64,000 nt of DNA from Candidatus Omnitrophota bacterium (GTDB lineage Bacteria; Omnitrophota; Gorgyraeia; JABMRG01; JAFGKX01): contig JAZDPX010000032.1 of the NCBI GenBank assembly GCA_043797125.1, positions 10,425-74,424 on the forward strand, written 5' to 3'. Below the pieces are notes generated by a model. That model was not told where the DNA came from. It made no database searches and worked only from the letters and a program-made list of their open reading frames with translations. Position 1 is the first letter of the stretch; the number at the start of each line of letters is the position of its first letter. Positions 2,365 through 53,654 of the stretch are shown one piece after another. Position numbers and translations under genes: made by a program.

Positions 2365-2532
2365 AGCATTTGAAACGCTCCTTGCAGGTTTAATTTCAAC
2401 AATATGATTTATTTATTCTAATTTTATCTTGATTTGCCTTTCATGGCGGAGTATTATATTAACACTAGATGTTTTAACCAGGATTTTTATGCCTGTTCAG
2501 GAGCATTAGAACCGAAGGAGGATAGAATAATA

Positions 2533-3441
2533 ATGAAAACAAAATTATTATTGCCGGTGTTGGCAGTTATTGTATGTTTTTTAATTGTAAATTGCGCGCC
2601 TATTCTGGCCGCGGAGCTTACTTCCAAGCAGCTAAAAGACATAGAGAACGCCATAAAAAAAATAAAGGATAAGGCAAGAGGCGTCCAAAAAGAAGGTTAT
2701 GATGAACTTTTATCAATAGGGCCTGACGCGACAAGCCAGCTTATAGATTTATTAAAGGATAAAACAGTTGAAAGAGAGGCCTTGAGACAGGCATGTAATT
2801 TATTAGGAGAATACAAAACTAAGGACAAGGAAGCGGTTACGGTTTTAATATACACTTTAAAGAATCCATCCTATACTGTCCGCGCAGCTGCCTGCGAAGC
2901 GCTTGGAAAAATAGCGGATCAGTCGGCCGCGGAAGAGTTGCTTGGAATGCTTGTTGACGAGGAAAGCTTAGTCAGGGAAAAGGCAGCGTACGCTCTAATA
3001 AGTTTTGATAATAAAACCATTCCAGGAAAAGTTTGCGAACTTTTAAAAGACAAAGATGAATCTGTTAGAGTCGCAGCCATTACGCTGCTTAACGAAAAAC
3101 TGGATCCGGCAACTATTAATTCTATAATAAACACCCTGCAAAAAGACAAGGCCCCCAAAGCCCGTCAGATAGCAGCCCGGGCGCTAGGCGGCTTAAAGAA
3201 AAAGGAAACCGTCGATGTTCTTATGGAATCTGTTGTTGAAGACAGCGATAACCTTGTAAGAGAAGAGTGCGCATCTGCATTAGGGCAAATAAACGATGCA
3301 AAAGCTGTGCCAGCCCTGATAGAAGCCATAAAAGATGGCTATAAGGACGTGCAGTTAAAAGCATTATATTCGCTCAAGAAAATAACAGGTCAGGACTTTG
3401 GGAGAGATTATGAGAAATGGTCGCATTGGTATAAAAAATAG
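2533..3441 (+). CDS. HEAT/PBS-lyase repeat protein with N-terminal signal peptide
   Basis: RBS GGAGGA at 2515-2520, then ATG at 2533. Signal-like MKTKLLLPVLAVIVCFLIVNCAPILAA. Repeated ~30-aa units with VR(x)AA(x)ALG patterns (TVRAAACEALGKI, SVRVAAITLL, KARQIAARALGGL). Confidence 0.6.
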   Translation: MKTKLLLPVLAVIVCFLIVNCAPILAAELTSKQLKDIENAIKKIKDKARGVQKEGYDELLSIGPDATSQLIDLLKDKTVEREALRQACNLLGEYKTKDKEAVTVLIYTLKNPSYTVRAAACEALGKIADQSAAEELLGMLVDEESLVREKAAYALISFDNKTIPGKVCELLKDKDESVRVAAITLLNEKLDPATINSIINTLQKDKAPKARQIAARALGGLKKKETVDVLMESVVEDSDNLVREECASALGQINDAKAVPALIEAIKDGYKDVQLKALYSLKKITGQDFGRDYEKWSHWYKK

Positions 3442-3841
3442 AAGGCGAACGGGCTTTACGCTGGTTGAAATTATGATAGTGGTGTCAATTATCGCGCTTT
3501 TAGCATCTCTTTCCATACCGATTATATTGCGGGCTAGGCACAATGCTGATGAGGGCGCTGCGCAAACGTCGCTTAAAACCATATGCGGCGCTTGCGTGAG
3601 TTATTTTGGAGCCAATGAAGCATATCCTGATTCGCTTGAGCAACTTGCCGGTGAAGTGCCGCCGTATATTGACCCTGTTTTGGCCAGCGGCTCGTCCAGC
3701 GGGTATGATTTTGCATATGAGCCTGGAGATGACGGCGTCTCATTTACATGTACTGCAACTCCTCAAGTGCCGGGTAGGACAGGAACGCGCATATTTGTCA
3801 TAGATCAGAGCGGGCTTATAACAGAAAGCGAAGAAGAATAG
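3410..3841 (+). CDS. Prepilin-type N-terminal cleavage/methylation domain protein (type II secretion pseudopilin / type IV pilin-like)
   Basis: Leader ending in G, followed by FTLVEIMIVVSIIALLASL, the hallmark of class III signal peptides. Overlaps the 3' end of the upstream gene. Confidence 0.6.
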   Translation: MRNGRIGIKNRRRTGFTLVEIMIVVSIIALLASLSIPIILRARHNADEGAAQTSLKTICGACVSYFGANEAYPDSLEQLAGEVPPYIDPVLASGSSSGYDFAYEPGDDGVSFTCTATPQVPGRTGTRIFVIDQSGLITESEEE

Positions 3842-18198: not shown

Positions 18199-18227
18199 TT
18201 GACAGAAGTGCTATAAATTGCTAAAAT
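18199..18227 (+). promoter_or_regulatory. Sigma70-like promoter (TTGACA-17-TAAAAT) for the giant-protein locus; the -10 lies inside an inverted repeat GTGCTA...TAGCAC
   Basis: ccTTGACAgaagtgctataaattgcTAAAATattagcac, with an about 75-nt leader and RBS AGGAGGGG before ATG 18312. Confidence 0.55.
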
Positions 18228-18311: not shown

Positions 18312-21300
18312 ATGTCAAAATTGACACAAAAATTTTTCACCATTATTATCTGCTTAGCCTTTATCGGGCAAAGCACGAATCTGGGTTACTTACCTTCACC
18401 AAACTCATCTAATACGCATACCTTGCGCGGAATGGCGTCGCAATTCGAAATATTACAGGAACTAGAAGAAGAAATGGCAAATGTAATGCCGAAATTTTAC
18501 ACAGCTGAAAATACCGGGCCCTATATGCCATATTATCAGTTGGACAGATCCTTTTTGCAGGGAAAGGTCGGATTTGCAAGGCTTGGATGCGATACGCCTA
18601 TGGATAAAAAGAAACAGAAGGAAATGAAGGATCTGGTTAAAGAGAAAAAAGATATGTCCCTTCTTCTTACCGATGTCAGCCGTATAGCAGACCCTGCCAG
18701 AATAGACTCCGCTATTGAAACTTTAATACACGTTATACGAAACGGCGGCAGGGTAGTGCTGCAGCCCGGCTGGATTGGCAGGCCCGAAGGTAAAATTAAG
18801 GCAGAATTAAGCGTAGTTCCGGTATTTTTGTATATAAGGGACAAGCTTGTAAAAGCAGGAGTAATAAAAGAAGATGAAATGATCCTCTGTCCCACGGATT
18901 TAGAAAAAAGAGAATGCAAAAGCAATTTCCAGAATGTAGGCGTAATTCGGGAGGCTATTAAAACCCATCTTAAAGATTTTAGGAAAGATGGCGAATCGGA
19001 TAAGGATTATAACAAAAGAAAGGGCAAGGTTAAGATATTGTGCCTTGAAAATCCAAGATTCGATAAAGAGTACGATAGCTTTAAATACAAAGATTTTAAG
19101 GATAGCAAAATAGAGGAACCTGCATTTATAAAGATGCTTAAAGAGGAGATTGCTTATGTTGTTTATGATGACTTCAATCATCAGCACAGGCCGCCGGCTG
19201 ATATATCCCTTCTGCCTGAATATGTACCCTCTTTTGTGGGAAAACGACTGGCTGAAGAAATCAGAATGGCTGATATATTATTGGAGATACTTAATAAGAG
19301 AGATAGAAAACCTTTTGCCTTATATCTTGGAGGAAAGAAAATAGAGACAAAGCCAGGCAAGATTTCCAAGGTAACGGTTGCGCTGGAATTAATCAGAAAC
19401 GATATGATGCGCAAGGATGACAGGCTTCTCATAGGCGGCGGTGTTGCGTATGCCTTTTTGGTTGCCCAGAAATATATAGATAGAATCATAACAGGCTTCG
19501 TAGATGACCCCGATAAAATAATCAGCCAGGAGGCTGTAAAGAAAATTACTCGCGGTGAAATAAGTGATGTTATCGGAGATTCATATATCTCGGATGACCC
19601 GTTTGATACAGAAGAGGGTTTAAAACAGGCGCATGAGAGAATTTATACTTTCGCGCAGCTTTTGGTTGAGGCAGCGAAAAGAGGCATTAAGGTCGGGCTG
19701 CCAATAGATCACAAAGTCAGAAACAACAAAACCGGGCAAATAAAAGAATGTACAGGTAATATTGAACGTGGCTGGTATGGTATTGACATTGGTTCCAAAA
19801 CTCGAGAAATGTATAACGGTGCCAGAAAAGGCATAAGCGCAGGTTTGATTGCAGGGCCTATGGGTATAGCTGATGACCCCGACCTTCCCGAAGGCACAGA
19901 AGGCACAGACATAGTCCTTAATGGCCTTGCGGAAGAGACGAGGGATAACGGCGCCTATACATTAAGCGGCGGAGGCGAGACAACGTTCAGGGCAATGGAG
20001 ATTAAAGTATTGCTTTCATGGCTTTCCTTAGGAGGCGGCGCTTTGCTGGAATATATTCAGAAAAATCGCGAGCTGCATGGCCTGCTTGCGCTAAAGAGAT
20101 CAGCGGAGAAATTTGCCGAGGGGAGGGTGTTAGCAGTTTCTGATGCGAAATCAGTGGAAGACACCATTCAGCAGATTAGGCCCTTATATGAGTCGCTGAA
20201 TAAGATAAGAATAGCCATGCCTTCCAATAAAATACAATATAAAATATGGGCGTTAATCAACTATTTCAGAAAAAAGATAGCTACGTTAACAGGCGCTCCG
20301 TGGAAGATACCTATTACTGCGGGGAACTGGAAAGAGAATATAGGAGAAGAAGAAGATGCAAAAAAATTGATTAAAGAAATGATATATGACCTTCGTTTCA
20401 TAGAAGGGGTTATACCTTTTATATGTCCAACAGCTGCGCATTTAAAAATTGCCGCAGAAGCCATAAAAGAAATGGAAGACAAGGGAATTATAGCAAAAGG
20501 AAAATTCACTCTCGGAGCCCAGGATGTGAGCGCCTATGGGGATAAAGAAATGAGCCCCTATTATAAGGATATAAGAGAGCAGTCAGGCAGAACGCATATA
20601 AAAACTATAATAAATGCAGGCAAAGGATATGTTAAATTTATTATTGTAGGCCATTCCGAGACATGCAGGACTCCTGTAGGGGTGGGCGACGAAGAGGGAG
20701 GCGCTGTGCCGGCCGGGCCAGCTTACGATCCTTTATGTGATTACGATGTGAATAACAAGGCGAAATTAACATTAAAATACGGCCTTACTCCAGATATATG
20801 CATAGGCGAAAGTTACGCGGAAAGAAACGCGGAAAAACTATATCCAACTGCTGACGCAAGAAAGGCCTTTCTTTTAAGACGCGGCATAACAGATGATACC
20901 GGAGAACCGGCATGGAAGCAGATTTTAAGACGCCAGATTCAGAGGAGGTTTTTAGGCCCGGATCCCGACGGTGCGATTACTACTAAGATTACCAAGGAAG
21001 ATATTTTACAAAAAGGCATCTATCTTTCCTACGAACCTATCCACTTTATAAGTTTTGGCAACGTAAACGCGGTCGTGGATATGAAGATTGTCGAAGAAGC
21101 CAACAGATTTATCACCTCGGAGATACTCAAGTTGTATGATAACGATAAAGACATAAAGGATAAGATACAGACCGAGGTAATAAAATACGGCGGCAGCGCC
21201 AATGAAACAAACGGCGAAGAGATAATCTCTACTATTTTCACCATAGGCACCATAGCGGGTGGAGCGAGCAGAACTTCAGCCAGATACCTGGGCCTTAACG

Positions 21301-24300
21301 TGGCATTCGGCGGCTGGATGATTCCCCAAAACGCAATTTTAGAAATCGAAGCGGAGCTTAAGCAATTGCGCAAGGCGCTTAAATCTACGCCGGCTGATTC
21401 AAAAGATGCGTCTTTGGCCTTAGAAGGGCAAATAAACCTGCTTAAGGAATTAAAACAGATAGTGCTTGAGATTATGAAAAAGCAAGGTATAGCTATACCG
21501 GCGCCAAGGATACCGACCGAGCAAGAGATGGCCATATATCTGCAGCTTAAAAAGGTAAAAGCTGTTACAGACGCTCAAGCGCAGTATGCCGGAGCTTATA
21601 TTCCAATAATTGATATGGTAAGACAATTTTATAAAAAGGCAGAAAAGACAGTAATAGATAAAAAGAAAGGGATAGAAGCGCTTGCTAAATATAAAAGTGT
21701 TTCATACAAAGACGTAGACAGCATAGAAGATGATAGCGTAGTTATATTCTGCAATCCGGAAAAAGATATGTTTACGGCGAGATTATGGTCATTCGCTTCG
21801 TACAAGAACGACTATTATAAAGATTATAAAGATTACACAATCTACATAATAGGCCATGCGGATGAGTTCGAGGCTGCGATAGCGGCGGAAGAGGCGAAAA
21901 AGCAGGCGAAAGAGGATGCGAAAAAGACTGAAACTGATACAACAAAAACGAACAACTATAATGCTACTGAAAGTGGCCATGTTGATAATATGCCTGATTT
22001 AACGGGCTTTGGCCGTAACGTGCAGATGCCATACACGCCTTCAGAGGCGGAGATGAACCTGTATATTGCGGCTGTAAAGGTACAAAACGTTACTAATGTA
22101 AAGGGCGTTCAAGTTAAAAGAGGCGATGCCTTTGCAGAAGTATATAGTGACGAGGCCACCAGGTTAGAGGGCGAGGCAAAAAGCTTTGTTAAGAAACAAG
22201 ACCTCAAGAAATACAAGCGTATTTCATATAAGAACAGAAAAGAGATACCTGACGGATCATTGGTTCTATTACCTGCTAAAGATGCAGGAAGGGACGGATA
22301 CAGGGTGACTATATGGTCTGCAAAGAAATACAATAAGGGGGTTTACTCTGGGGAGTTGTATAAATACTTCACCTCCTCCACCGCTTATATAATAGGCCAC
22401 AGAGATGACTTTGAAGTTCTCATAACGGAGTCGCCAAAAAAATATGCTGAGTTATTAACTATGCAGTCTGGATGGGGTGACAAGTGGACCGAGTATTACC
22501 ATATAGTAGCTATAGATAAAGCAATCGAGGACTATACAAAAGAGTTGAATACAAGGGAACGCGACTTGTTAACACCGGAAGGCATATACGAAGAGTATTG
22601 CAAGGTATTAGACGGGGCAGACAGCGCAGAGTTATACAAGATGGCATGGGAATTCGCGTTACGGAAAGATTTTAAGAGCTTATCAACAATATCTGATATA
22701 AAGCAAGTAGCGCCCGGGGACATAATTATTATTACCGATACCAATCCAAAACAGAAAAGTGTCATTAATGTAATTGTGTATGACCCGCAAGAGCATGACT
22801 TAATTGTATCTGCCGCGATTTCCGATTTTAAGAAAGCCGAGGTGCGCTACATAGGCAATAAAAATATGTTTGAAGATAAAATATCTGTAACAGCAAAAGA
22901 CGTATTAAAAGTATATCTGGAGTTTAATAAAAGCGTGACTAACAATGATAAGTTTTTTAAAACCCACGGCATCAGGAGTACAATTGTTGAAAAGTTTGTG
23001 CGTTCCGGCAATTTTAAAAAGCTGCCTGTTGTCAAAAATCAAGACTATCTGCACTCGGGGTCGCTGTTTATTGCCGCTAAAACACAATGGGATAAGCAAT
23101 TAAGCGGGGATGTTCGCCTTATATTTGTAAGCGCTGGCAAGAGACATGCAATAGAGTATGGAGACTGGTGGAGCGCTGACGGGTCAAAAATCAGCGAGTA
23201 TGAACTCCGCTGCATAGGGCCTATCGCGTTAATAAAGAATGAGTTGGGTGAAAAGGCTGTTTCTAAGTTGAAAGACGAGATCGGCTACATAAAAGTTGAG
23301 TTAAAGAGACGGGAAAAACTAAAGAAAGAGATGACGGGAAAAAAGACGACTGTTTCTTCCGAGAAATCCCTTACCTGGCAAATTCCAAAAATTACTCCGA
23401 AAGATATACAAACTGTGTATGATGAGTACGTCAAAAAATATGATAGATGGTACCCATGGTCTATAGACCCGAAACGCCCGGATAATATTCCCGGATATGG
23501 GCTATTTTTAGAAGAAAAGGATATTCGCCCCCTAATAAATCCAAAGGGCATATGGGCGCTACGCAAAGTTATAGATAAAATAGCGGAAGAGGCTAAGATA
23601 GAAGGGAAAAAAATTGACTTAACAACGCACCCTGACGACCGCTTGTATCACAACAAGCTAGTCGAAATATGCCGGTGGACGCGTGTCGATTTAGGTAATG
23701 CGCTGGATATGATGCTTAAGGAACCAAACCGTCTGGGCTATGTGCTTACAAGCAAAGAAGACGCAATATCAAATTGCTTATATATTTCCAGTCTTACTGC
23801 TTATGAGTCTCTCGACAGCGAACAACAGAAGCGTTACAGAGATGGACTAGGGGGATGGCGCAATAAAACATTGCATCAACTAGCTGATGAGCGTATTGCC
23901 ACAGGAGAGGAAATTGCCAGTATGGACCTAACGCAATTCAAGAAGTATAAGTTCCGTCAAATACTGGTACAAACAGAGGATAAAAAGACGAAAGAAAAGA
24001 CGCAAGGACCCAATTACGACGTTACCGAACTTGCAAAAGGAAAAGTTGATGAGTTTACACCAGGAGAAGGTGCCATTCCTGGTGTTATGGTTGGCGCAAA
24101 TAATGCCCTCCAGACGGCCTTAGATATTATTAATACACCATCTTCCACCACGGACGAGAAGCAAATTGAAGAGTATGCAAAATCATTAGATAAGGCTGAA
24201 GAATCGCTTGACAAGGCAATAAATGCAACAAATTTGAAGGATGATTTTAGCGGTTTTAAGGCAATTGCTGCAGAAGGCACAGGCCTGCCTACGGGCACCA

Positions 24301-24959
24301 TAGATGAAGCCAAGGAGCAGTGGCAATACAGCACGAACATTCTACACGCGGTAAAAGGAATAAGTGCTGCAACAAGAATAAGAGGCCTGGAAGACGCAAA
24401 TCAGGATATTATTAAGCCGTTTACCATGTTTATAGATAAAACAGCGCCTTACCAGAAGCAACTTGAATGGGCAAAAGAGCTGGGTGTGTTTGATGTTGCA
24501 AAAGAGAAGTTCGGATGCCAGACAATAGAATTCGATCCTGCAAAAGATAAGATAGACGAATTATTAAAGCAAGCAAACGTCAGCAAAGACATGGCAATGT
24601 TTATCTCGCAGCCTAAATATAAAGAAAAACTTGAAAGAGCTGAAATTAAATCCATAATTATAGACAAATTCGAGCAGGGTATGTTCATAGATTTTATGAC
24701 CCTGGCAGGTTTTTCAAAGGTAATGCTCTATCTGGCCAAATATGGTGAGAATCAGGAATATAAGGACATTAAATCCAATTTATGGAATCTTGCCCAGCTG
24801 TTGTATAGGTCCTTAACTGGCGAGAGTGCGGTGCTTGAAAAGGATAGTATAACCAGTTTTGCAATTAATTTACCCTTGCCTGAACCCAAGGCTTTACTAC
24901 CAGACGAGAAGTTGAGAGAGCTGATTAAGATATCCGCGGAAACAGCAGGCAAGGCGTAA
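18312..24959 (+). CDS. Giant (2215 aa) protein: N-terminal signal-peptide-like segment, complete phosphoglycerate kinase-like domain, complete triosephosphate isomerase-like domain, about 1200-aa K/E-rich C-terminal region of unknown function with internal repeats
   Basis: PGK motifs: ETLIHVIRNGGRVVLQPGWIGRPEG...SVVPVFLYIRDKL (cf. SHLGRP...LKDKL), KILCLENPRFDKE (LENxRF), AYVVYDDFNHQHRPPAD (DAFGTAHRA), FALYLGGKKIETK, LLIGGGVAYAFLVAQ (GGGMAxTFL), GIDIGSKT...GLIAGPMGIAD...GTEGTDIVLNG...TLSGGGETTFRAMEIK...LGGGALLEY. TIM motifs: ITAGNWKEN, FTLGAQDVSAYGDKEMSPYYKDIREQSG...FIIVGHSETCR, ICIGESYAERNAEK, SYEPIHFISFG, VIKYGGSANETNGEEI, IAGGASRTSA. The C-terminal half has a duplicated module (...TIYIIGHADEFE / ...AYIIGHRDDFE). 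Confidence 0.85.
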   Translation: MSKLTQKFFTIIICLAFIGQSTNLGYLPSPNSSNTHTLRGMASQFEILQELEEEMANVMPKFYTAENTGPYMPYYQLDRSFLQGKVGFARLGCDTPMDKKKQKEMKDLVKEKKDMSLLLTDVSRIADPARIDSAIETLIHVIRNGGRVVLQPGWIGRPEGKIKAELSVVPVFLYIRDKLVKAGVIKEDEMILCPTDLEKRECKSNFQNVGVIREAIKTHLKDFRKDGESDKDYNKRKGKVKILCLENPRFDKEYDSFKYKDFKDSKIEEPAFIKMLKEEIAYVVYDDFNHQHRPPADISLLPEYVPSFVGKRLAEEIRMADILLEILNKRDRKPFALYLGGKKIETKPGKISKVTVALELIRNDMMRKDDRLLIGGGVAYAFLVAQKYIDRIITGFVDDPDKIISQEAVKKITRGEISDVIGDSYISDDPFDTEEGLKQAHERIYTFAQLLVEAAKRGIKVGLPIDHKVRNNKTGQIKECTGNIERGWYGIDIGSKTREMYNGARKGISAGLIAGPMGIADDPDLPEGTEGTDIVLNGLAEETRDNGAYTLSGGGETTFRAMEIKVLLSWLSLGGGALLEYIQKNRELHGLLALKRSAEKFAEGRVLAVSDAKSVEDTIQQIRPLYESLNKIRIAMPSNKIQYKIWALINYFRKKIATLTGAPWKIPITAGNWKENIGEEEDAKKLIKEMIYDLRFIEGVIPFICPTAAHLKIAAEAIKEMEDKGIIAKGKFTLGAQDVSAYGDKEMSPYYKDIREQSGRTHIKTIINAGKGYVKFIIVGHSETCRTPVGVGDEEGGAVPAGPAYDPLCDYDVNNKAKLTLKYGLTPDICIGESYAERNAEKLYPTADARKAFLLRRGITDDTGEPAWKQILRRQIQRRFLGPDPDGAITTKITKEDILQKGIYLSYEPIHFISFGNVNAVVDMKIVEEANRFITSEILKLYDNDKDIKDKIQTEVIKYGGSANETNGEEIISTIFTIGTIAGGASRTSARYLGLNVAFGGWMIPQNAILEIEAELKQLRKALKSTPADSKDASLALEGQINLLKELKQIVLEIMKKQGIAIPAPRIPTEQEMAIYLQLKKVKAVTDAQAQYAGAYIPIIDMVRQFYKKAEKTVIDKKKGIEALAKYKSVSYKDVDSIEDDSVVIFCNPEKDMFTARLWSFASYKNDYYKDYKDYTIYIIGHADEFEAAIAAEEAKKQAKEDAKKTETDTTKTNNYNATESGHVDNMPDLTGFGRNVQMPYTPSEAEMNLYIAAVKVQNVTNVKGVQVKRGDAFAEVYSDEATRLEGEAKSFVKKQDLKKYKRISYKNRKEIPDGSLVLLPAKDAGRDGYRVTIWSAKKYNKGVYSGELYKYFTSSTAYIIGHRDDFEVLITESPKKYAELLTMQSGWGDKWTEYYHIVAIDKAIEDYTKELNTRERDLLTPEGIYEEYCKVLDGADSAELYKMAWEFALRKDFKSLSTISDIKQVAPGDIIIITDTNPKQKSVINVIVYDPQEHDLIVSAAISDFKKAEVRYIGNKNMFEDKISVTAKDVLKVYLEFNKSVTNNDKFFKTHGIRSTIVEKFVRSGNFKKLPVVKNQDYLHSGSLFIAAKTQWDKQLSGDVRLIFVSAGKRHAIEYGDWWSADGSKISEYELRCIGPIALIKNELGEKAVSKLKDEIGYIKVELKRREKLKKEMTGKKTTVSSEKSLTWQIPKITPKDIQTVYDEYVKKYDRWYPWSIDPKRPDNIPGYGLFLEEKDIRPLINPKGIWALRKVIDKIAEEAKIEGKKIDLTTHPDDRLYHNKLVEICRWTRVDLGNALDMMLKEPNRLGYVLTSKEDAISNCLYISSLTAYESLDSEQQKRYRDGLGGWRNKTLHQLADERIATGEEIASMDLTQFKKYKFRQILVQTEDKKTKEKTQGPNYDVTELAKGKVDEFTPGEGAIPGVMVGANNALQTALDIINTPSSTTDEKQIEEYAKSLDKAEESLDKAINATNLKDDFSGFKAIAAEGTGLPTGTIDEAKEQWQYSTNILHAVKGISAATRIRGLEDANQDIIKPFTMFIDKTAPYQKQLEWAKELGVFDVAKEKFGCQTIEFDPAKDKIDELLKQANVSKDMAMFISQPKYKEKLERAEIKSIIIDKFEQGMFIDFMTLAGFSKVMLYLAKYGENQEYKDIKSNLWNLAQLLYRSLTGESAVLEKDSITSFAINLPLPEPKALLPDEKLRELIKISAETAGKA

Positions 24960-24981
24960 GCCGGCGTAGGGCAAATGTAGG

Positions 24982-25060
24982 GGCGCCATTTATGGCGCCC
25001 TGATGTAGGGGGGGCTTGATTTATCAAGCCCACAAAAATAGGGTTCGATAAATCGAACCC
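24982..25060. promoter_or_regulatory. Three tandem perfect palindromes (18, 18 and 20 bp) with AT-rich 2-nt centres, between the giant gene and the next gene
   Basis: GGCGCCATttATGGCGCC (24982-24999), GGCTTGATttATCAAGCC (25013-25030), GGGTTCGATaaATCGAACCC (25041-25060). Each is preceded by (t)aggg. They share the central ATTTAT/ATAAAT core but have different arms. Confidence 0.55.
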
Positions 25061-25091
25061 CTACTGCTATTAAGCAAAATAAGGGGATTTC

Positions 25092-27815
25092 ATGCCGAGT
25101 TTACCTAAAAAAGCAGTAACTGTCCTTATTGCCGCTATTTTCATCGCGCAAAGCGCAAATCTGAATTACCTTTCCGCTCAAACCCAATTAAACACGAACG
25201 CATTGCGGGCCATGTCCATGGCTATTGAGCTTGATCCAAACAAGGCTATTATAGAAAAAGTAAAAGAATACTACGCTGAAAAAGGCATAAATGCCGATGA
25301 TTATTATGTTCCGCCCATAGTAGGCAAAGATATATTTGGAAAAGAGCTGACCATAAATAAAGGCGATATAGTTATCCATGCTAACCATCGCGCAGACAGA
25401 GTTTTTGAAAGCTTATTTTCCCTTACAGATCCTGATTTTAATAAAGACAGCCAAAGGTTTGATACCCCTGATTTGGGCTTGCATGTCGTCGCCTTTGCTA
25501 ACCACGATTCAAAATATTTCGCTAAGCATGGCATAGAAGCTGCTTTTACCATCAACGAAGAAGACTACAGGCCTTCATACGATTCCTTGGTGGATGTCTT
25601 GTATGAAAATAATATCAAGCAGGGGTATTTTACAGAAACAGATAAGGGTAAACATGTAAGTTATTTTTTAGCAGGCCAGCGTAATCTTCCTTATGAGGAT
25701 ATGGGGATACACGTGGAAATCGTTGCTTCTCAATCAGTATCTGATAAGGAAAAAGACCCTAATATGCAGTATAAGGAAATAACATCAAACGCCATTAACT
25801 TTTTACAGAATAACAGCTCTGATGAGCCTGCTTTTATTTTGGTAAATTATCCTGTCGATATCCAAGGCCACAATATTAAATGTAATAAGCAAAGAGCTAT
25901 TGATACAATATCAGCCTGCGATAGGGAAGCTGAAAAACTATATAATGCGGTAAAAGAAATGGGCGGTGTATGGATAGATACATCCGACCACGGCAACGTT
26001 GAAGAGTTAGCTGTTTTGGATAAAAATGGCATGCCTGTAACGGATAAATACGGCAATATCCCTTATGACCAGCATACTGCTAATTCTGTTCATTGCATAA
26101 TAGACGGTTTAGGAAATGTTAATCTTAAAGATGGCAAGGGCCTGGCCAATATCGCCCCCACCGTCCTTGAAATTTTAGGAATTGATAAGCCGAAGGATAT
26201 GGAAGAAAGCCTGCTTAAAGATTATAAATACAAAAAGATAAAAGGCCCTGTTGTGGTTGTTGTGCGCGACGGCTGGGGTAAAAGCAAGTTTACTAACCCT
26301 GAGGCATTGGAATGGAATGGATTAGAACTGGCTAAACCCGCCTTTTTTAACCGGCTTAAAGAAACCGCCCCCATTACTTGGATTAAGGCGCACGGAAGCG
26401 CTGTTGGCCTGCCTGATTATCAGGAGGGCGATTCTGATAACGGCCATCGCACCATAGGGGCAGGAAAGATACTGCCGACATTATATAAATTAATTATAGA
26501 CCAAATAGAATCAGGCGATTTTTATAAAAACGAAGTTCTGCGCAATATCTTTAAAAAAGCCATAGAAGAAAAGCACGATATATGCGTGATGGGCCTTGAT
26601 TCCGACGGAGGAATACACTGCGATCATAAGTATTTTCTTGCTTTAATAGAAATGGCAAGGTGTTTTGACATTAAAAAGCATGGCATAAAGCTGAAGCTTT
26701 TTCCGATTTTAGACGGAAGAGACAGGATGACCAGAATATATGAACAAAGCGGAGCTTACTATCTTGAGGATTTAGACAGAAAGATAAAAGAAGCGGGTCT
26801 TGCAGGCGCTGCATATATAGCTCAAACTGTCGGAAGATATATGGCAATGGACAGAGACGCTGTAAACGCTGATAAGGAAAGAGAACGCCTTGAGCAGAAA
26901 TTATCCGATGCCTTAAAACCGGATGATCCCGCGAATAAAGCTGACAATATTGTGAAATTAGTATCAGGTATTACAGCATCTGTGACTAAGGAAATTGCAA
27001 AAACAGAAAAAGAGCTGGCCAAGGCAAAAGACGCGCCAAAACAGGCATTTTTTAACAGCATAATTAATTGTTTGAATGCCATTGGGCAGCTTAATGAGAA
27101 ATTTAATCTTGAAAACGCGAAAGGCAAAAATAGGAATAATGAGAAAATAATTGAATTAGGAAAGAAAATAGCTGAAAACAAAAGACAGGAGTGGCTTATC
27201 CGCGCTAGCGCATTATGGCAGGAGCGTTACAAGGTAGCTTACGATGCCTGGGTTTATGGGAGCAAAGCTCCTCAAATGAAGTTCATGGAAGCCGCCGCGC
27301 ACAAAGATGAGCCTTTGAGCGAGACGGTTGATTATTCAGAACCGCAGCCTGCAGATAAAAAGGGTGTATGTGTACAATACAGCTATGTTCTGCATTTAAG
27401 AAATAAGTTAAAAAAACATTTTGATACAACAACAACTTCAACTCTAACAGCTGCGGAACTAACATTAGAGGAAATAATAGTGGAATGTGTTAAAAATGAA
27501 GTATTTTATGCTTCAAACCCATTATTTATTAAAGATTCTGAATCTATAAAAGCTGATGGGGTTTATTTTTCAAGCCGTGCATTTAGGAGTAGAAAGTCAA
27601 TCACGGAACAAAATAAGCTCTGCAAGGATATATATATTCTTACGGGTGCGGGAATGGCCGATGTTGAGTCAGTAGCAAGATGGCAGTACCTGTTTGTAGG
27701 TAACCTGGATGAGAAAATATTAAAAAATGGATTCTCTGATAATCCAGGCGCAGAGAAAGTCTATCCTAATGATTCGCAGAAGCTGCTGGACATCGCAATT
27801 CTTGCGGCTGCGTAA
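25092..27815 (+). CDS. 907-aa protein: signal-peptide-like N-terminus with motif shared with the giant protein, circularly permuted 2,3-bisphosphoglycerate-independent phosphoglycerate mutase (GpmI-like) domain, about 200-aa unknown C-terminus
   Basis: C-terminal-half GpmI motifs come first: DIVIHANHRADR (FMNFRADR), FILVNYPVDIQGHN (ICNYPNGDMVGHTG), WIDTSDHGNVEEL (ITADHGNAE), LANIAPTVLEILGI (DIAPTMLSLMG). N-terminal-half motifs come second: VVVVVRDGWG (VLVILDGYG), AHGSAVGLPDYQEGDSDNGHRTIGAGKI (GLPDRQMGNSEVGHxNLGAGR), VMGLDSDGGIHCDHKYF (GLLSAGGVHSH), ILDGRDR (FLDGRDT), GRYMAMDRD (GRYYAMDRD). Confidence 0.85.
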   Translation: MPSLPKKAVTVLIAAIFIAQSANLNYLSAQTQLNTNALRAMSMAIELDPNKAIIEKVKEYYAEKGINADDYYVPPIVGKDIFGKELTINKGDIVIHANHRADRVFESLFSLTDPDFNKDSQRFDTPDLGLHVVAFANHDSKYFAKHGIEAAFTINEEDYRPSYDSLVDVLYENNIKQGYFTETDKGKHVSYFLAGQRNLPYEDMGIHVEIVASQSVSDKEKDPNMQYKEITSNAINFLQNNSSDEPAFILVNYPVDIQGHNIKCNKQRAIDTISACDREAEKLYNAVKEMGGVWIDTSDHGNVEELAVLDKNGMPVTDKYGNIPYDQHTANSVHCIIDGLGNVNLKDGKGLANIAPTVLEILGIDKPKDMEESLLKDYKYKKIKGPVVVVVRDGWGKSKFTNPEALEWNGLELAKPAFFNRLKETAPITWIKAHGSAVGLPDYQEGDSDNGHRTIGAGKILPTLYKLIIDQIESGDFYKNEVLRNIFKKAIEEKHDICVMGLDSDGGIHCDHKYFLALIEMARCFDIKKHGIKLKLFPILDGRDRMTRIYEQSGAYYLEDLDRKIKEAGLAGAAYIAQTVGRYMAMDRDAVNADKERERLEQKLSDALKPDDPANKADNIVKLVSGITASVTKEIAKTEKELAKAKDAPKQAFFNSIINCLNAIGQLNEKFNLENAKGKNRNNEKIIELGKKIAENKRQEWLIRASALWQERYKVAYDAWVYGSKAPQMKFMEAAAHKDEPLSETVDYSEPQPADKKGVCVQYSYVLHLRNKLKKHFDTTTTSTLTAAELTLEEIIVECVKNEVFYASNPLFIKDSESIKADGVYFSSRAFRSRKSITEQNKLCKDIYILTGAGMADVESVARWQYLFVGNLDEKILKNGFSDNPGAEKVYPNDSQKLLDIAILAAA

Positions 27816-27826
27816 GAAGAGTGTAA

Positions 27827-27860
27827 AGCCGTAGCGGAGCCTTAAGGCTCCGCTACGGCT
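27827..27860. repeat. CTTAAG-centred palindrome (type 2, 34-bp perfect) plus an adjacent small hairpin cttgccggctggcaag; apparent insertion into a 3' motif that is uninterrupted at 62989-63015
   Basis: agccgtagcggagccttaaggctccgctacggct, flanked by gtgtaaag on the left and gcgttaagtgtaaagt on the right. Confidence 0.8.
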
Positions 27861-27973
27861 TGCCGGCTGGCAAGCGTTAAGTGTAAAGTAACAGCGTAGG
27901 ATATTTGATGTAAAGATAGCCGTAACTATTACAAATAACGTTGCGGCTATTTTAATATGAAGGATTTAATTTT

Positions 27974-29368
27974 GTGACTAAATTTTTTAGAAGGACAATC
28001 GCGGTTATTATTATCGCCGGCTTAGGCGCAGGCCAGGCGAGCGCCGACGCGCTCAGGCCTTCTGCCTTCGTGAATGGGCCTGAAAAAACAGCGCAAGAAC
28101 AGGCCTTCGAAAACCTTAAAAAGGCTTTTGATTTAAAAGGCGCGATAACCAAAGCTTTACTTGCCGAAGCGATAAATGAATTAGAGGATATATTTAATAG
28201 CCGCAGCCAAAGCGCGCGGGATACAATAGTAAACAATATTGCATATCCGTTTTTCGAAAGAGAAAAAGCCTCCCCCGGCAAAACCGCTTCGGAAACCCCG
28301 ATAAAGAAAGATCTGCTGGATAAAATTAAAGTTTTCGGGATAGATGTTATTCCTACGGGGGACGTTACTTTCATGTGGAAGGAGACAGCAAAAAATGGGC
28401 CTTTGGAATTAACAAACGTAATATATAATTCCGGCGGCGGCTCTGTGAACATAGCGAAGGTGTTCGCGAATTTTAATGAATATTTCGGCCTTATGTCTTT
28501 TGCGGGCAGAGGCAGATTCCATAAGAGATGGCGCCAAGATTTTGAAAGCGAGCACGTCATAAATTTCAGGTTTTTTACAGAGCAGCTTCACCGCAAGATA
28601 AATATTTATAATATTGTCAAGGGCGAAAAACTTCCTGTTCTATGCAGCAGGGGAAATACTATTCCAAGGGTTATAGTTAATGAGTTTTTAAAAATATTCG
28701 AAAAAAAGCTTAAAAAATGCAAAAATGTTAAATTTTTGACACTAAACGCCAGCTCAATGGTGGCGTTTGAAGACGCAGATGCGCTACGGGCATACAAAAA
28801 GATTATAGAAATCGCCCATAAGCATAAAAATAAAATCGAAGTTTTGATAGATTTTTCCTCGACCACAAAGCCGGATGTTATAAAAGCTGTTTTAGAATTA
28901 AATGAGCCAAGGAAGCGGCCTTGCGATATCATCACTCCGAGCCTTGAGCAGTTTATTAAGATATTGGAAAGCACAGGCTTGGCCAAAAAAAACGAGTTAT
29001 CCAGAGATACGCTGACCGACAAAAAAATAGCTACCTATGCCTGGCAGCTGATAAAGGACTATAACCTTTCAGCTGTCTTAATAAAGAGAGATAAGGACGG
29101 TTTGATATTGGTCAGGAACAATTATGAGTTTATGAGAGAAAAAGGGCTTGAGGTTGAAGTAGTATCTGAAATTGCTGCCGGAGACGCCGCTGCCGCCGGG
29201 CTTTTAATCGCTTTATCTGAAGGCAAAAGCTGGCAAGAAGCCATTAAGACGGCGGATTTATTTGGCGCCGCAACGGTTATTTTGCCCGCTACCGAGGTGG
29301 TTACCCCTGAAGCGCTTGATTTTGTCAAAAAAGAACAAATCCTGCAGAATATCTCCCAAGCGGCGTAA
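27974..29368 (+). CDS. PfkB-family (ribokinase/phosphofructokinase-B superfamily) carbohydrate kinase with N-terminal signal peptide; GTG start
   Basis: Signal MTKFFRRTIAVIIIAGLGAGQASADA. PfkB N-terminal glycine motif NSGGGSVNIAKVFANF. C-terminal ATP-site motif EIAAGDAAAAGLLIAL (cf. GAGDxFxGGFL). Confidence 0.75.
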   Translation: MTKFFRRTIAVIIIAGLGAGQASADALRPSAFVNGPEKTAQEQAFENLKKAFDLKGAITKALLAEAINELEDIFNSRSQSARDTIVNNIAYPFFEREKASPGKTASETPIKKDLLDKIKVFGIDVIPTGDVTFMWKETAKNGPLELTNVIYNSGGGSVNIAKVFANFNEYFGLMSFAGRGRFHKRWRQDFESEHVINFRFFTEQLHRKINIYNIVKGEKLPVLCSRGNTIPRVIVNEFLKIFEKKLKKCKNVKFLTLNASSMVAFEDADALRAYKKIIEIAHKHKNKIEVLIDFSSTTKPDVIKAVLELNEPRKRPCDIITPSLEQFIKILESTGLAKKNELSRDTLTDKKIATYAWQLIKDYNLSAVLIKRDKDGLILVRNNYEFMREKGLEVEVVSEIAAGDAAAAGLLIALSEGKSWQEAIKTADLFGAATVILPATEVVTPEALDFVKKEQILQNISQAA

Positions 29369-49838: not shown

Positions 49839-51626
49839 CTATGCGGCGGAGTCGATGGCTGCATAGGAAGAAATCTTTTCAGTGGGTATGGTATCTATTA
49901 ATTTTTCTAGCGCAACGATTGCTTGTTGTATTTCAGGCACGATTTCTCTTAATGCCTGCATTTTATGTTTTGCATCATCACTTTTACAAAAAGTCTGATA
50001 CAGGATGTAGCGAAAAGCACTATTGGGAGGGATATGATCATTTTCTGTATTTACAAAACCAAAAATTTTTTCATATTTAGAAAAGTCTTTTTCTTCAACA
50101 AAATCAACAAAAGGCCGAAGAGCTAAGCTAAATTCCTCAATAATTTGCTTAGCTAAAATACTATTTTTTCTTAGTATTGAGGGGCTATTCTGACCATTGC
50201 AAATATCTTGCTTTATTCTAGATAATCTCTCTTTGGAGAAAAGCCCTCTGTATACAATAACATGCTCTGCGCTTGTGTGAAATTTATCATTATTCCTATC
50301 CTGCGGGCTTCCTTTTACCCAAAAATCAAGTGGAGGTATTAGATTCATCAAGCTTTCATAGAGCTCTTCAGCATACATAAGCTGTGCCTGTACGTTTTCA
50401 AGTGACGAAGCTTTTTTTAGCTTTGGTTTTTTAGGAAAGTTAAAACCGCAAGGCAGCTTTATTATAACTGTCGTACCTTTGCCAAGTTTTGATTTTACAT
50501 CAACCGTGCCGCCAATATCTTTAATAATATAATAGGCTGCTGTAGCGCCAATTCCTGTATGGGTTTCCATATAGCAGCTGTTGCGTTCTTTACTTTCATT
50601 TATATTAAATAAAGCCGGCCTTTCCATGATACAGTCATGTTTTAAAAAATCCTCTGAAACGCCGCCTCCTTTGTCTGTAATTTGTATTTTCACAAAGTTG
50701 CCATTTTTCGTTATTCGCATTGTGACCGTACTATGTTCATAATTTGTTGTTGAAAAATCTATGGCATTTTCAACGATTAATTCTATGGCGCCCTGTAGCA
50801 TTACATCGTTGCAATAAATGTCTACAGGATTCTTTAAATTATTTTTTATTTTTAATTCCACATCCCCACTTACCACCTTGTCGTAGCGTTTTTTGACCCT
50901 TTCATTTACATTCTTTATAATTTCGCTAATAGAATGATGTTTATAGCTGTGTTTATATCCCTGCGGGAAATCTATAATAGGTAATGATGCCTCTAAAATA
51001 ATATTCAAATTTGTTAAAATAAATGTAAACACATCAATCCTGTCAGGTTCTTCTTTGTCTTCGAAAAAAAACTGACTTTTTAGAAAATCATCTGCGAGAA
51101 CTTCTCTAAGGATTTTCTCCATGTTTCTTTTAACTAGTATGATATTTCTTCGTTCGTTAAATAGTATGTCATTATATTTAGTCAAGTCCGATGAAGCAGT
51201 TGCATAATTTAAGGAATCCTCTCCCGCTTTTTCTAGCATGCTCCTTAAATTTTCATTGTGTTTAAAATATAGTTCAGTCGTTTCTTTAACCATATCATAC
51301 ATATTATAAAAATGTCTGCTTTTACCTGACCCCTCCTCCCAATAATCATACCATCTATTGCACGAACCCATTAAGGAACCCATGCGCGCAGATGTATTAT
51401 GGTAAGCTTCAGGTATTCCGAAAATGTTAGCCGTAGGTAAACTCAAAAGTCGTATTGCTACAATAAAACGTTCTATATCTTCTCGTTTTTCCTTTGGTAA
51501 AGTATAGAATTTTTCTTTTGGTGAGAGTTTTTTCAAAGAGAGGTTATTTGCTATCGGTCGTAGTGAATAAGCAGACTGCGGCATTGTTAATATAATAAGC
51601 AGTATAATTGTTATGATTTTCCTCAC
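49839..51626 (-). CDS. Signal-peptide protein with GHKL/HATPase_c-type ATP-binding domain (histidine-kinase-like, atypical; no clear HisKA H-box or TM sensor architecture)
   Basis: N-terminal MRKIITIILLIILTMPQSAYS. G-boxes ...ITDKGGGVSEDFL... and THTGIGATAAYYIIKDIGGTVDVKSKLGKGTTVIIKLP. Confidence 0.6.
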   Translation of the reverse strand: MRKIITIILLIILTMPQSAYSLRPIANNLSLKKLSPKEKFYTLPKEKREDIERFIVAIRLLSLPTANIFGIPEAYHNTSARMGSLMGSCNRWYDYWEEGSGKSRHFYNMYDMVKETTELYFKHNENLRSMLEKAGEDSLNYATASSDLTKYNDILFNERRNIILVKRNMEKILREVLADDFLKSQFFFEDKEEPDRIDVFTFILTNLNIILEASLPIIDFPQGYKHSYKHHSISEIIKNVNERVKKRYDKVVSGDVELKIKNNLKNPVDIYCNDVMLQGAIELIVENAIDFSTTNYEHSTVTMRITKNGNFVKIQITDKGGGVSEDFLKHDCIMERPALFNINESKERNSCYMETHTGIGATAAYYIIKDIGGTVDVKSKLGKGTTVIIKLPCGFNFPKKPKLKKASSLENVQAQLMYAEELYESLMNLIPPLDFWVKGSPQDRNNDKFHTSAEHVIVYRGLFSKERLSRIKQDICNGQNSPSILRKNSILAKQIIEEFSLALRPFVDFVEEKDFSKYEKIFGFVNTENDHIPPNSAFRYILYQTFCKSDDAKHKMQALREIVPEIQQAIVALEKLIDTIPTEKISSYAAIDSAA

Positions 51627-51777: not shown

Positions 51778-52266
51778 TCAAGGAAATAAAAATAATAGTC
51801 TGTGCCAAGACATGCCCCGCTTCTTAAATCTATGGGCGATGAACTTGTCGACGTTAGATTCCATGGCTCCTGAGCCCTTTATACGGCGCCTTATTGTTTT
51901 ATCTTCTATTCGCTTTATGGGGTTTATGCCTTGGCGGTTCTGATCTATATATACGTAAAGATCATTTATGGAATCCTTCATTCTTATGTCCTTTGTCCTG
52001 GTAAGTATTCTCTTTATAGTGGAAAGCGCTTTGTCTATCTGGTCTTTCTTTATGAGGTCATTTATCTTAAGCTGCATATCTGGCCTTTTAGAGAGGGCGC
52101 GCTTTATGTTTCTTTTTAAGTGGAACTTGCTTAGGATATATATGGCGCCTGGGAAGCAATCTTTAATCCCGGCTGTTATATACGCGCCTCCATCTCCGCC
52201 GAATATAACCGCTTTTGAGCTTGAGAGCCGGAGTTTCTTTTCGGCGATGAGGCTTAAGTTTTCCAT
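51778..52266 (-). pseudogene. ISL3-family-like transposase, C-terminal fragment only (N-terminal about 60% absent)
   Basis: AIYILSKFHLKRNIKRAL resembles the ISL3 DRFH(V/I)xK region. The C-terminal basic tail is present, but no continuation of the reading frame upstream. Confidence 0.5.
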
Positions 52267-52464: not shown

Positions 52465-52493
52465 TTGACATTTCTTTAATAGTAATGTATAAT
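52465..52493 (+). promoter_or_regulatory. Sigma70-like promoter TTGACA-17-TATAAT for fic
   Basis: aaacTTGACAtttctttaatagtaatgTATAATttctatgctATGaac; implies the fic start is ATG 52503. Confidence 0.5.
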
Positions 52494-52502
52494 TTCTATG
52501 CT

Positions 52503-53654
52503 ATGAACAAAAATAGAGGGGGCATATATATAACCCAATCACAAGGTTATAAGGCTTTTATCCCAACAAAACTTCCGCCAAAACCGCCGCTTAATATCGA
52601 TAATACAATTATAGAGTTGTTATCAAAGGCAGATATAGCTATCGGCCGCCTTTCGGGTATATCTGAAACACTGCCTAATCCTGACTTATTTGTCGCCATG
52701 TACGTAAGGAAGGAAGCTGTTTTGAGTTCTCAGATAGAAGGAACAGAAGCGTCCTTAGAAGATTTATTAGAGTATGAATCCGGAAATGGGGTAAAAAAAT
52801 TGCCAAATGATATAACAGAAGTTGTCAATTATATTAAGGCAATGAACTATGGATTAAAACGCATAAATGAGCTGCCTCTCTCTCTTAGATTAATCAAGGA
52901 AATCCATTTTGAATTAATGGAAGGTGTTAGGGGCGGTGATAAGACTCCGGGCGAGTTTAGAAAAACACAAAATTGGATAGGCCCAAAAGGATGCGTTTTA
53001 AACAATGCGAGGTTTGTGCCTCCTCCGCCGCATGAAATGATTCAGGCCTTGAGCGATTTAGAAAAATATATGCATTCCGAGTTAAATTATCCGCTGCTGA
53101 TAGAATGCGGGCTTATCCACACTCAATTTGAAACTATACACCCGTTTTTAGATGGTAACGGCCGCATAGGAAGATTGCTTATCGCATTTTTTTTATGCCA
53201 TAAAGGAATATTGAAAAAACCATTGCTCTATTTGAGTCATTATTTCAAACAAAACCGCCTTGAATATTACGATAGGCTTATGAATGTAAGGGAAAAAGGA
53301 GATTTTGAATCCTGGATAGAATTTTTTCTGGAAGGCGTTAAAGAAACAGCCCAAGAGGCCTGTGAAGCATCTTATAAAATATTGAAGTTAAAAGATGCTG
53401 ACAGAAGAAAAATCAGTGAAATTTATAAAGAATCCTCAAAAACAGCGTTACTGCATGAAAAGTTATTTGACAGGCCTGTTATTTCAATAAAAGATATAGC
53501 TGCTATTATAAATACCACTTTCCCAACAGCAAATTCCATTTGCAGCAAACTTATTAAATTGGGTATATTAAAAGAGGTAACAGGCAAAGAAAGAAATAAA
53601 TTGTTTACTTATAAAAGCTATTTGGATATTCTTAAACAAGAAGCTAATGTTTAA
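52503..53654 (+). CDS. fic: Fic-family protein (FIC domain with C-terminal winged-helix-like region)
   Basis: Canonical FIC motif HPFLDGNGRIGRLL (HPFxDGNGRxxR). Confidence 0.85.
   Translation: MNKNRGGIYITQSQGYKAFIPTKLPPKPPLNIDNTIIELLSKADIAIGRLSGISETLPNPDLFVAMYVRKEAVLSSQIEGTEASLEDLLEYESGNGVKKLPNDITEVVNYIKAMNYGLKRINELPLSLRLIKEIHFELMEGVRGGDKTPGEFRKTQNWIGPKGCVLNNARFVPPPPHEMIQALSDLEKYMHSELNYPLLIECGLIHTQFETIHPFLDGNGRIGRLLIAFFLCHKGILKKPLLYLSHYFKQNRLEYYDRLMNVREKGDFESWIEFFLEGVKETAQEACEASYKILKLKDADRRKISEIYKESSKTALLHEKLFDRPVISIKDIAAIINTTFPTANSICSKLIKLGILKEVTGKERNKLFTYKSYLDILKQEANV

Follow-up and report, generated by a model that had tools for sequence, protein, structure and literature searches.

A conserved N-terminal Leu-Arg tag behind the predicted signal peptides of glycolytic enzymes from Omnitrophota as a candidate sorting signal

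Specialised Sec signals or post-cleavage peptides which are specific for one class of cargo are known from several systems, such as YSIRK-G/S, KxYKxGKxW, the Bacteroidetes lipoprotein export signal and curli CsgA N22, in which an extra element routes this cargo to a certain place or to a second-step translocon. In kinetoplastids, the glycosomal peroxisomal targeting signals 1 and 2 (PTS1/PTS2) are short terminal peptides common to the enzymes of one glycolytic pathway. Giant proteins of Omnitrophota contain glycolytic domains (TIM, GPI, FBPase, PGM, aldolase, PPDK) which are predicted to reside outside the cytoplasmic membrane (10.1101/2023.11.21.568195; 10.64898/2026.06.07.730766), although one of these two preprints suspects a topology error behind this placement. 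Here we analyse a stretch of 64,000 nucleotides from a Candidatus Omnitrophota metagenome-assembled genome (MAG), hereafter referred to as the window, in which four open reading frames (ORFs), P1 to P4, share a short peptide tag located behind a putative signal peptide (Table 1). The tag exists, is conserved under selection, modular and specific for one class of cargo, and is confined to a narrow group of Omnitrophota. We assign a probability of roughly 0.55 to the reading that it serves the sorting or assembly of one particular class of cargo, namely glycolytic enzymes which are exported.

Within residues 1-47 of P1 and P2, 19 of 47 positions (40%) are identical (BLASTP E ~5e-6), and the comparison of the whole proteins by BLASTP limits their similarity to this N-terminal segment. 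The local alignment of the pair scores 91, whereas seven further signal peptides encoded in the window reach 13-32 against them, which supports the original prediction of more conservation than a generic Sec signal needs. Likewise, the proposed extension of the similarity past the signal-peptidase region is borne out, as the part following the hydrophobic (h-) region alone reaches a score of 59 versus a maximum of 36 in 2000 shuffles. At the nucleotide level the 47 codons show merely 55% identity, with different codons used at 8 of the 19 identical residues. Because of this low identity and these synonymous differences we consider the similarity to be old and to reflect conservation of the protein sequence. 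That it stems from a recent duplication or from gene conversion was rejected on account of the 55% nucleotide identity.

The original prediction had assigned a related motif to all of P1, P2 and P3. While this clearly applies to P1 and P2, the pairwise scores of P3 against either of them (22-28) equal those of the controls, although P3 fits the core described below. The N-terminus of P3 does, however, show significant similarity (score 40, p=0.0055) to that of P4, which is encoded far outside the region originally considered and whose start reads MRKIITIILLIILTMPQSAYSLRPIAN. Alignment of 28 tagged N-termini on their Leu-Arg pair reveals this pair to be invariant (28/28), with Asp at position -2 in 19/28, Ala or Ser at +4 in 27/28 and Ala at +5 in 19/28 sequences. 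The resulting core, D-x-L-R-x-x-[AS]-A, is often followed by x-K-[D/E]-G...I-x-x-E-L, and the segment SADALRPSAF of P3 conforms to it. The consensus suggested initially, h-[GA]-Q-[SA]-[ST/A]-[NA]-[LD]-x-[YA]-L, had to be abandoned since its register (GAGQASADAL/IGQSTNLGYL) is not the conserved one. Judged from the sequences, the tag occurs in the window in two variants, one in P1/P2 and the other in P3/P4, which we count as one because of the common L-R core and the evidence from the whole family.

This family evidence comprises, firstly, the P2 relatives encoded in other genomes, with an identity of 53-56% across the enzyme core, in which a signal end S/G-Y-A-G is followed, after a few residues, by S-D-N-L-R-[RK]-P-[SA]-A-E. 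Relatives of P1 retain F-I-S-T-S-T-N-L-S-Y-I-P-S...D-S-L-R-S-M-S-A-S or an M-R-P variant thereof. P0098, a protein from another genome which is 53% identical to P1, keeps the tag as FISTSTNLSYIPSSLNTYKDSLRSMSAS, and BLAST detects just two segments shared by both proteins, namely the PGK domain and the first 45 aa. The tag is always found at the extreme N-terminus, irrespective of the domain following downstream: in P2 the iPGM directly succeeds the module, whereas relatives insert a PGM/PMM, methyltransferase or DeoC aldolase domain ahead of the common enzyme.

The cargo of the tag was assessed by counting the pattern L-R-x(2,3)-[AS], located at most about 40 residues past an N-terminal hydrophobic segment, in all ORFs of the window and of related loci which possess such a segment. 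The pattern is present in 14 of 14 signal-bearing ORFs for sugar-phosphate or ATP-dependent enzymes (PGK-TIM, four iPGM, PfkB, ATPase, FBP aldolase/phosphatase, PPDK, two enolases, DeoC-PGK-TIM, PFK-GAPDH and PGM-iPGM) and in none of the 23 remaining signal or membrane ORFs of the same loci, among them BatD, TPR and FecR proteins, solute-binding proteins, glycoside hydrolases, permeases and two conserved large signal-bearing proteins. Its background in internal 42-residue segments amounts to 4.5%, and the contrast between the two sets spans unrelated enzyme families. As ordinary exported proteins of these loci bear unrelated signal peptides and lack the pattern altogether, the tag does not represent a lineage-wide style of signal peptide, one of two refuting outcomes which had been envisaged from the beginning. 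The other, a motif confined to three proteins, does not apply either, given its presence in P4, in the related loci and in the matches of the following census.

A profile of 54 positions searched against 1.84 billion (1.84e9) representative proteins yielded 22 matches at E<=1e-3, 19 of them at the protein start and three (P0110, P0114, P0120) internal; no matched protein exceeds 2400 aa, and all sources which carry a name are Omnitrophota. According to Pfam, the newly found proteins include a permuted iPGM, an archaeal-type ApgM, a PFK+GAPDH fusion (1842 aa), a PPDK (1483 aa), a TIM-PGK, a DHH phosphoesterase and a PGM-like protein, to which gene neighbours in the related loci add tagged FBPase_3 (1019 aa), enolase (877 and 1253 aa) and PPDK. 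Taken together, census matches and gene neighbours thus cover each step from fructose-6-phosphate to pyruvate. In further searches, a word-indexed protein search with the N-terminal profile gave 433 candidates with three matches, all short fragments; among metagenome contigs, a scan with the C-terminal domain described below remained empty and one with the PGK core returned a single contig already in the set; and a genome-contig scan with the iPGM alignment led to four Omnitrophota loci only. Inside the one giant ORF examined (L008, 6704 aa) no match to the tag occurs, about 0.45 being expected by chance, and on this basis we rejected an internal role of the tag in giant proteins, be it as linker or as cleavage site.

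These data bear on the possibility that shared ancestry suffices as explanation, i.e. that one 5' module encoding a signal peptide has spread by copying among paralogous, frequently re-fused genes, which arose by fission of giant genes, and plays no role beyond ordinary Sec export. Domains do shuffle freely in this group, and the few matches retrieved by the census place the module in a very small clade. Yet, the part beyond the cleavage site, which is useless to Sec, is the best conserved one, culminating in the invariant L-R pair. Moreover, the tag persists where everything but the catalytic domain has diverged past detection by BLAST, the nucleotide sequences of the P1/P2 module have accumulated synonymous changes, and ordinary exported proteins of the same loci possess unrelated signal peptides. 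We therefore deem mere ancestry quite improbable.

The anatomy of the N-termini agrees with the original description of a basic n-region followed by a hydrophobic stretch of about 12 residues. The net charge of the n-region is +2 in P1, P2 and P4 and +3 in P3 (mean +2.8 over 29 tagged proteins), while the h-region comprises 12-13 residues in P1-P4, with P1 and P2 below the 19-residue threshold for a transmembrane (TM) segment; in related proteins the hydrophobic or uncharged stretch is longer (13-26 aa). Small residues, as judged by eye, occupy positions -3/-1 (G-Q-S in P1, A-Q-S in P2, A-S-A in P3 and A-Y-S in P4), and the relatives display an S/G-Y-A|G site with Pro at -6. Beyond the N-terminal hydrophobic stretch, P1-P4 contain no further transmembrane segment. 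The start codons of P1-P3 are each preceded by a Shine-Dalgarno-like sequence (GGAGG 7 nt upstream in the case of P1). Most likely, these N-termini constitute cleavable Sec-type signal peptides.

Alternatively, the hydrophobic segment might be an uncleaved membrane anchor which faces the cytoplasm with the L-R pair as its positively charged juxtamembrane flank. The enzymes are indeed of cytoplasmic type and dependent on ATP or NAD, the uncharged stretch reaches 17-26 aa in the related group where L-R-K/R adds positive charge behind it, and the 2026 preprint (10.64898/2026.06.07.730766) takes giant proteins with nothing but TM segments as cytoplasm-facing. The charge distribution, in contrast, favours an N-in/C-out orientation, as the mean of the n-region exceeds that of the 15 residues past the h-region (+0.8). 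In addition, the h-regions of the window proteins are too short for a membrane span, AxA-like sites recur, with Pro at -6 in the relatives, and the distance between hydrophobic segment and L-R varies. An anchor thus appears unlikely to us.

Other known export signals were considered as well. A twin-arginine translocation (Tat) signal (S/T-R-R-x-F-L-K) was rejected as P1 has TQKFF, P2 LPKKAV, P4 MRKII and the relatives K-K at this position; none of the N-terminal segments scanned matched the NCBIfam Tat model. Solely P3 harbours a twin Arg (M-T-K-F-F-R-R-T-I-A-V), which lacks the polar residue ahead of R-R, along with a Gly-rich h-region. Tat-type export may be conceivable for this protein only. 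A lipoprotein signal ([LVI][ASTVI][GAS]-C lipobox) was dismissed since there is no Cys at the h/c boundary of P1-P4 and the Cys within the h-region of P1 follows I-I-I. The same applies to a type IV pilin-like (class III) signal, G|F-T-L-I-E, which P1-P4 lack and which is found in another ORF of the window (Pfam N_methyl). When six N-terminal segments were scanned against the curated sorting-signal families of NCBIfam (YSIRK, KxYKxGKxW etc.) at E<=10, only unrelated equivalogs at chance level were returned.

In our preferred reading, the cleavable signal peptide would take each enzyme across the membrane, and the tag, situated at or near the mature N-terminus and dispensable for Sec export itself, would mark the enzymes of the Embden-Meyerhof pathway (EMP) and a few other enzymes handling ATP or sugar phosphates, many of which are enlarged by fusions or extensions. 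After translocation and cleavage by signal peptidase, a putative partner (a receptor or scaffold, or else a translocon acting in a second step) would recognise the tag, so that the enzymes would be brought to and held together at one extracytoplasmic place. The likeliest is the envelope or cell-surface site at which the enzyme modules of giant proteins from Omnitrophota are predicted to reside; the window proteins resemble free-standing versions of these modules. This sorting-tag account is suggested by the location of the tag past the cleavage site, where Sec imposes no constraint, and by its confinement to one cargo class. Signal-peptide cleavage, export, tag recognition and co-localisation of the enzymes are all steps which we infer from sequence.

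Several observations weigh against this reading. The likeness of P3 to P1 and P2 does not go beyond the short core, L-R follows the predicted cleavage site at variable spacing (1-18 residues), and the cleavage sites themselves are rule-of-thumb calls. Since the homologues are not independent of each other, the contrast of 14/14 to 0/23 overstates its statistical weight. PGK, PfkB, PFK, PPDK, GAPDH and the histidine-kinase ATPase need ATP/ADP or NAD, and as an ordinary periplasm does not supply these cofactors the export of active enzymes would be biochemically awkward. Inspection of the neighbourhood for a dedicated secretion or sorting system, as recommended at the outset, revealed neither a receptor nor a translocon, a sorting enzyme or dedicated secretion genes beside the cluster in the window. 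Finally, all data are metagenomic sequences.

P1, which is 100% identical to an NCBI entry 'MAG: phosphoglycerate kinase [Candidatus Omnitrophota bacterium]', contains a PGK (aa 116-583, 1.6e-40) and a TIM domain (aa 667-843, 7.3e-12), both strongly diverged from the Pfam models (140 and 46 bits). Reading of the sequence reveals the PGK motifs G-R-P-E-G, E-N-P-R-F, G-G-K-K, G-G-G-V, G-P-M-G and G-G-G-E as well as the TIM motifs N-W-K, G-H-S-E, Y-E-P and Y-G-G-S. The C-terminal extension of P1 has no sequence match in Pfam or the PDB, self-BLAST does not find internal repeats therein and its similarity to the extensions of the closest P1 relatives is undetectable. P2 is likewise 100% identical to an NCBI protein of a Candidatus Omnitrophota MAG, encoded there on a 78-kb contig. 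Its iPGM is circularly permuted as two BLAST segments appear in swapped order compared to canonical iPGMs, residues 55-375 aligning to about 218-543 and residues 386-590 to about 5-202 of the canonical enzyme. The motifs D-G-W-G, G-D-S-D-N-G-H with the catalytic Ser, D-G-R-D, D-H-G-N and Q-H-T are invariant across the alignment of P2 relatives; as the catalytic Ser and the metal ligands do not vary among the six relatives of P2, the permutation is conserved in the P2 group. An AlphaFold model of full-length P2 calculated from six sequences (mean predicted local distance difference test score, pLDDT, of 50; tag region <50) turned out to be too poor for use. P3 shows a weak match to the ribokinase-like YdjH in the PDB and the PfkB motifs G-G and A-G-D can be read from its sequence. 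Two of the three proteins P1-P3 are ATP users and, as the catalytic motifs are retained, all three look like working enzymes. The divergence of the tagged domains, together with canonical PGK and enolase in other genomes, suggests that untagged canonical paralogues coexist with the tagged copies; both canonical enzymes have been reported from all 176 complete Omnitrophota genomes.

The ATPase domain of P4 matches the catalytic domains of sensor kinases in the PDB, and the protein, one of the very few encoded on the minus strand of the window, has no second transmembrane segment. Its gene lies within a stretch of low GC content (0.35 vs ~0.43) adjoining a UPF0236 transposase fragment and a Fic protein, due to which it may sit on an inserted element.

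A far-reaching extension of the sorting-tag reading would be that this Omnitrophota group exports a complete, catalytically competent EMP pathway (PFK, aldolase, TIM, GAPDH, PGK, PGM, enolase, PPDK) by means of the N-terminal tag, many of the enzymes with a common C-terminal domain, and assembles it outside the cytoplasm, be it at the envelope or predator-prey interface of the ultra-small, host-dependent cells or in a hitherto unseen membrane-bounded compartment. We regard this as tentative and, on balance, doubtful. As Omnitrophota such as Ca. Velamenicoccus archaeovorus have been described as ultra-small predators or parasites, an interface with the prey or a compartment continuous with the prey cytoplasm is conceivable. 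If true, ATP-yielding glycolysis would proceed outside the cytoplasm of a bacterium, much as in a prokaryotic version of the glycosome, and if the enzymes do work there, models of energy metabolism in these predatory or parasitic nanobacteria would change. The tag offers independent evidence that the extracytoplasmic placement of glycolytic domains is real and deliberate, since free-standing enzymes for each step of the pathway possess the same predicted signal and tag while ordinary secreted proteins do without. With about 25 residues, it may be used in reporter fusions, as a bait for a receptor or as a search key to an exported 'metabolic secretome'.

At least 12 tagged proteins of the related group, including mutases, enolase, PFK-GAPDH and a PGM-like protein, share a C-terminal domain of about 230 aa ending in ...L-P-D-I-E-P...K-F-I-D-S-F-I, which points to a common assembly of these relatives. 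AlphaFold predicts a Rossmann-like alpha/beta fold (pLDDT 82) without significant match among solved structures. Neither this domain nor the tail of the related group was significantly detected in the window proteins by hmmsearch and hhalign, so that a likeness of the P2 C-terminus to the domain, seen by eye, is tentative. We noticed post hoc that P1-P4 all end in -K-A or -A-A (…SAETAGKA, …DIAILAAA, …QNISQAA, …AAIDSAA), that -A-A does not terminate any other of the ~45 further real ORFs in the window and that P0098 terminates in …YTLIAA. These ends may represent a second, C-terminal signal; a profile of the C-terminal tails of other tagged proteins did not pick out those of P1-P4.

Recurrent elements beside the tagged enzymes of the related loci are giant ORFs, PilZ genes and two conserved signal-bearing proteins of about 1700 and about 520 aa, for none of which a homologue was found in the window. 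The ~520-aa protein, 48% identical between two genomes, shows the invariant motifs I-I-H-L-Q-D-A-H-C-N-Y-E-A-Q and G-G-F-H-T-P-G. Over its C-terminal GGFH motif it matches the Tiki/ChaN superfamily (PF04187) weakly and below threshold (E=0.0037), while a profile search of the PDB gave no match; possibly, it is an accessory enzyme, maybe a protease. This leads to the further alternative that the tag serves maturation or belongs to a pro-peptide: a protease dedicated to this task in the periplasm would trim or recognise the N-terminus newly formed there and thereby activate or release the enzymes. The presence of such a protein next to tagged enzymes would fit, as would the proteolytic processing of Omnitrophota giant proteins proposed by West-Roberts et al. 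Many members, including P3 and P4, however, have a Pro after L-R, which blocks most Arg-specific proteases, and the candidate protease has no counterpart in the window, a family assignment short of the Pfam threshold and an empty PDB profile search. A role in maturation therefore seems quite improbable. Returning to the sorting-tag reading, the ~1700-aa protein, encoded directly upstream of a tagged mutase in three genomes, is a candidate scaffold; it has no Pfam match, a Ser-rich N-terminal part and no L-R tag. Very large ORFs of the related loci fuse several glycolytic enzymes, one product of 3050 aa comprising cupin-type GPI, TIM, PGK and enolase, and a relative of the P2-type mutase is contained in an ORF of >6704 aa. 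Just downstream of the P0098 gene an intein-interrupted RtcB RNA ligase gene adjoins an archease gene.

Upstream of P1, the window harbours a MoxR-DUF58-BatA-BatB-TPR-BatD-TPR/SH3 operon followed by a gap of 530 nt with a sigma-70-like promoter match, and downstream of P3 an FMN reductase and a PolX-type polymerase are encoded. A scan of the window against Rfam found no RNA family. Nearly all genes are located on the plus strand and the GC skew is positive except at 50-52 kb, consistent with one replichore. At another place in the window, the gene of a signal-bearing HEAT-repeat protein overlaps that of a protein with a prepilin-type N-methylation motif. As HEAT repeats are reported to occur more often than any other extracellular domain in the giant proteins of Omnitrophota, this HEAT-repeat protein could be a binding partner.

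Table 1. Coordinates of the tagged proteins, their predicted N-terminal elements and further features of the window and of related loci (designated L).
Feature	Position	Strand	Description	Basis
P1	18312..24959	+	2215 aa; signal peptide (putative), tag, PGK, TIM, C-terminal extension	ORF and Pfam
P1 signal peptide (putative)	18312..18374	+	MSKLTQK-FFTIIICLAFIG-QS; n-region +2, h-region 12 aa, G-Q-S signal-peptidase-I-like site	
P1 post-signal tag	18375..18452	+	TNLGYLPSPNSSNTHTLRGMASQFEI; L38-R39 core at 18423-18428	
P1 C-terminal extension	21312-24956	+	1215 aa	
P2	25092..27815	+	907 aa; signal peptide (putative), tag, permuted iPGM, ~300-aa C-terminal extension	Pfam Metalloenzyme and iPGM_N
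P2 signal peptide (putative) and tag	25092..25232	+	MPSLPKK-AVTVLIAAIFIA-QS, then tag ANLNYLSAQTQLNTNALRAMSMAIE; L38-R39 core at 25203-25208	
P3	27974..29368	+	464 aa; signal peptide (putative), tag, ~110-aa uncharacterised region, PfkB-family sugar kinase aa 141-435	Pfam PfkB 1.4e-20
P3 signal peptide (putative) and tag	27974..28072	+	MTKFFRR-TIAVIIIAGLGAG-QASA, then DALRPSAFV; L27-R28 core at 28052-28057	
P3 twin-Arg segment	27974-27997	+		
P4	49839..51626	-	595 aa; signal peptide (putative) MRKIITIILLIILTMPQSAYS, tag LRPIAN, helical region, histidine-kinase-type ATPase domain	Pfam HATPase_c 4e-12
P4 L22-R23 core	51558-51563	-		
C-terminal ends of P1, P2, P3	24930-24959, 27786-27815, 29339-29368	+		
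C-terminal end of P4	49839-49871	-		
sigma-70-like promoter match	18199..18227	+	TTGACA-17-TAAAAT with TG, ~85 nt upstream of P1	consensus match only
HEAT-repeat protein and prepilin-type protein	2434-3841 (2434-3441; 3398-3841)	+	overlapping genes	
UPF0236 transposase fragment; Fic protein	51778-52266; 52485-53654	-; +	adjoin P4 stretch	
C-terminal-domain carriers	L001 10001-13372; L004 955-4716, 10001-12766; L005 9848-12550; L015 10001-15529; L016 10001-14704			
~520-aa protein	L001 13552-15159; L015 8389-9933			
~1700-aa protein	L004 4746-10001; L005 4779-9848; L016 5019-9944			
Very large fused ORFs	L016 1-4985; L008 64-20178 (6704 aa); L001 1-9211			
RtcB and archease genes	L011 and L012, 17690-20680			

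Among systems resembling individual aspects of the tagged enzymes, the PGK-TIM fusion of Thermotoga maritima is a cytoplasmic protein without signal peptide. Like P1, it comprises PGK followed by TIM in one polypeptide; P1 differs from it by its predicted signal peptide, its extension of ~1200 aa and its strongly diverged PGK and TIM domains. Glycosomal targeting parallels the tag in that terminal peptides occur across one pathway and imply a common localisation, yet this is an analogy only. PTS2 itself (R-[LVIQ]-x-x-[LVIHQ]-[LSGAK]-x-[HQ]-[LAF]) was rejected as the tag has L-R instead of R-L, no H/Q-L five residues on and a position behind a hydrophobic signal peptide; to our knowledge, Omnitrophota possess neither peroxins nor a compartment. 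YSIRK, KxYKxGKxW, the Bacteroidetes export signal and CsgA N22 are comparable to the tag with respect to position and size. There is, however, no resemblance in sequence, and the cargo of the tag consists of enzymes of central metabolism rather than adhesins, lipoproteins or amyloid subunits.

The giant proteins ('Archaeovorins', West-Roberts et al. 2023; 2026 complete-genome preprint) stem from the same phylum as the tagged enzymes and share with them TIM, GPI, FBPase, PGM/PMM, aldolase, PPDK and PGK as well as the predicted extracytoplasmic location; as to this location, PGK, TIM, iPGM and PfkB of the window all lie behind predicted signal peptides. The comparison further includes the PilZ genes which follow the enzymes in related loci (3' of the enzyme genes in L001, L004, L015 and L016). 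While the giant proteins extend over tens of thousands of residues with multiple TM segments, the window proteins are stand-alone polypeptides of 464-2215 aa without internal TM segment, each of them equipped with its own predicted signal peptide and L-R tag. Neither of the two preprints on giant proteins mentions an N-terminal motif, and neither they nor Seymour et al. 2023 describe the tag, of which searches of the full-text literature gave no description either; apparently, the motif has not been described before. In kind, it would be a specialised Sec signal combined with a putative sorting tag, to which YSIRK-like systems come nearest in kind and the modules of the giant Omnitrophota proteins nearest in cargo.

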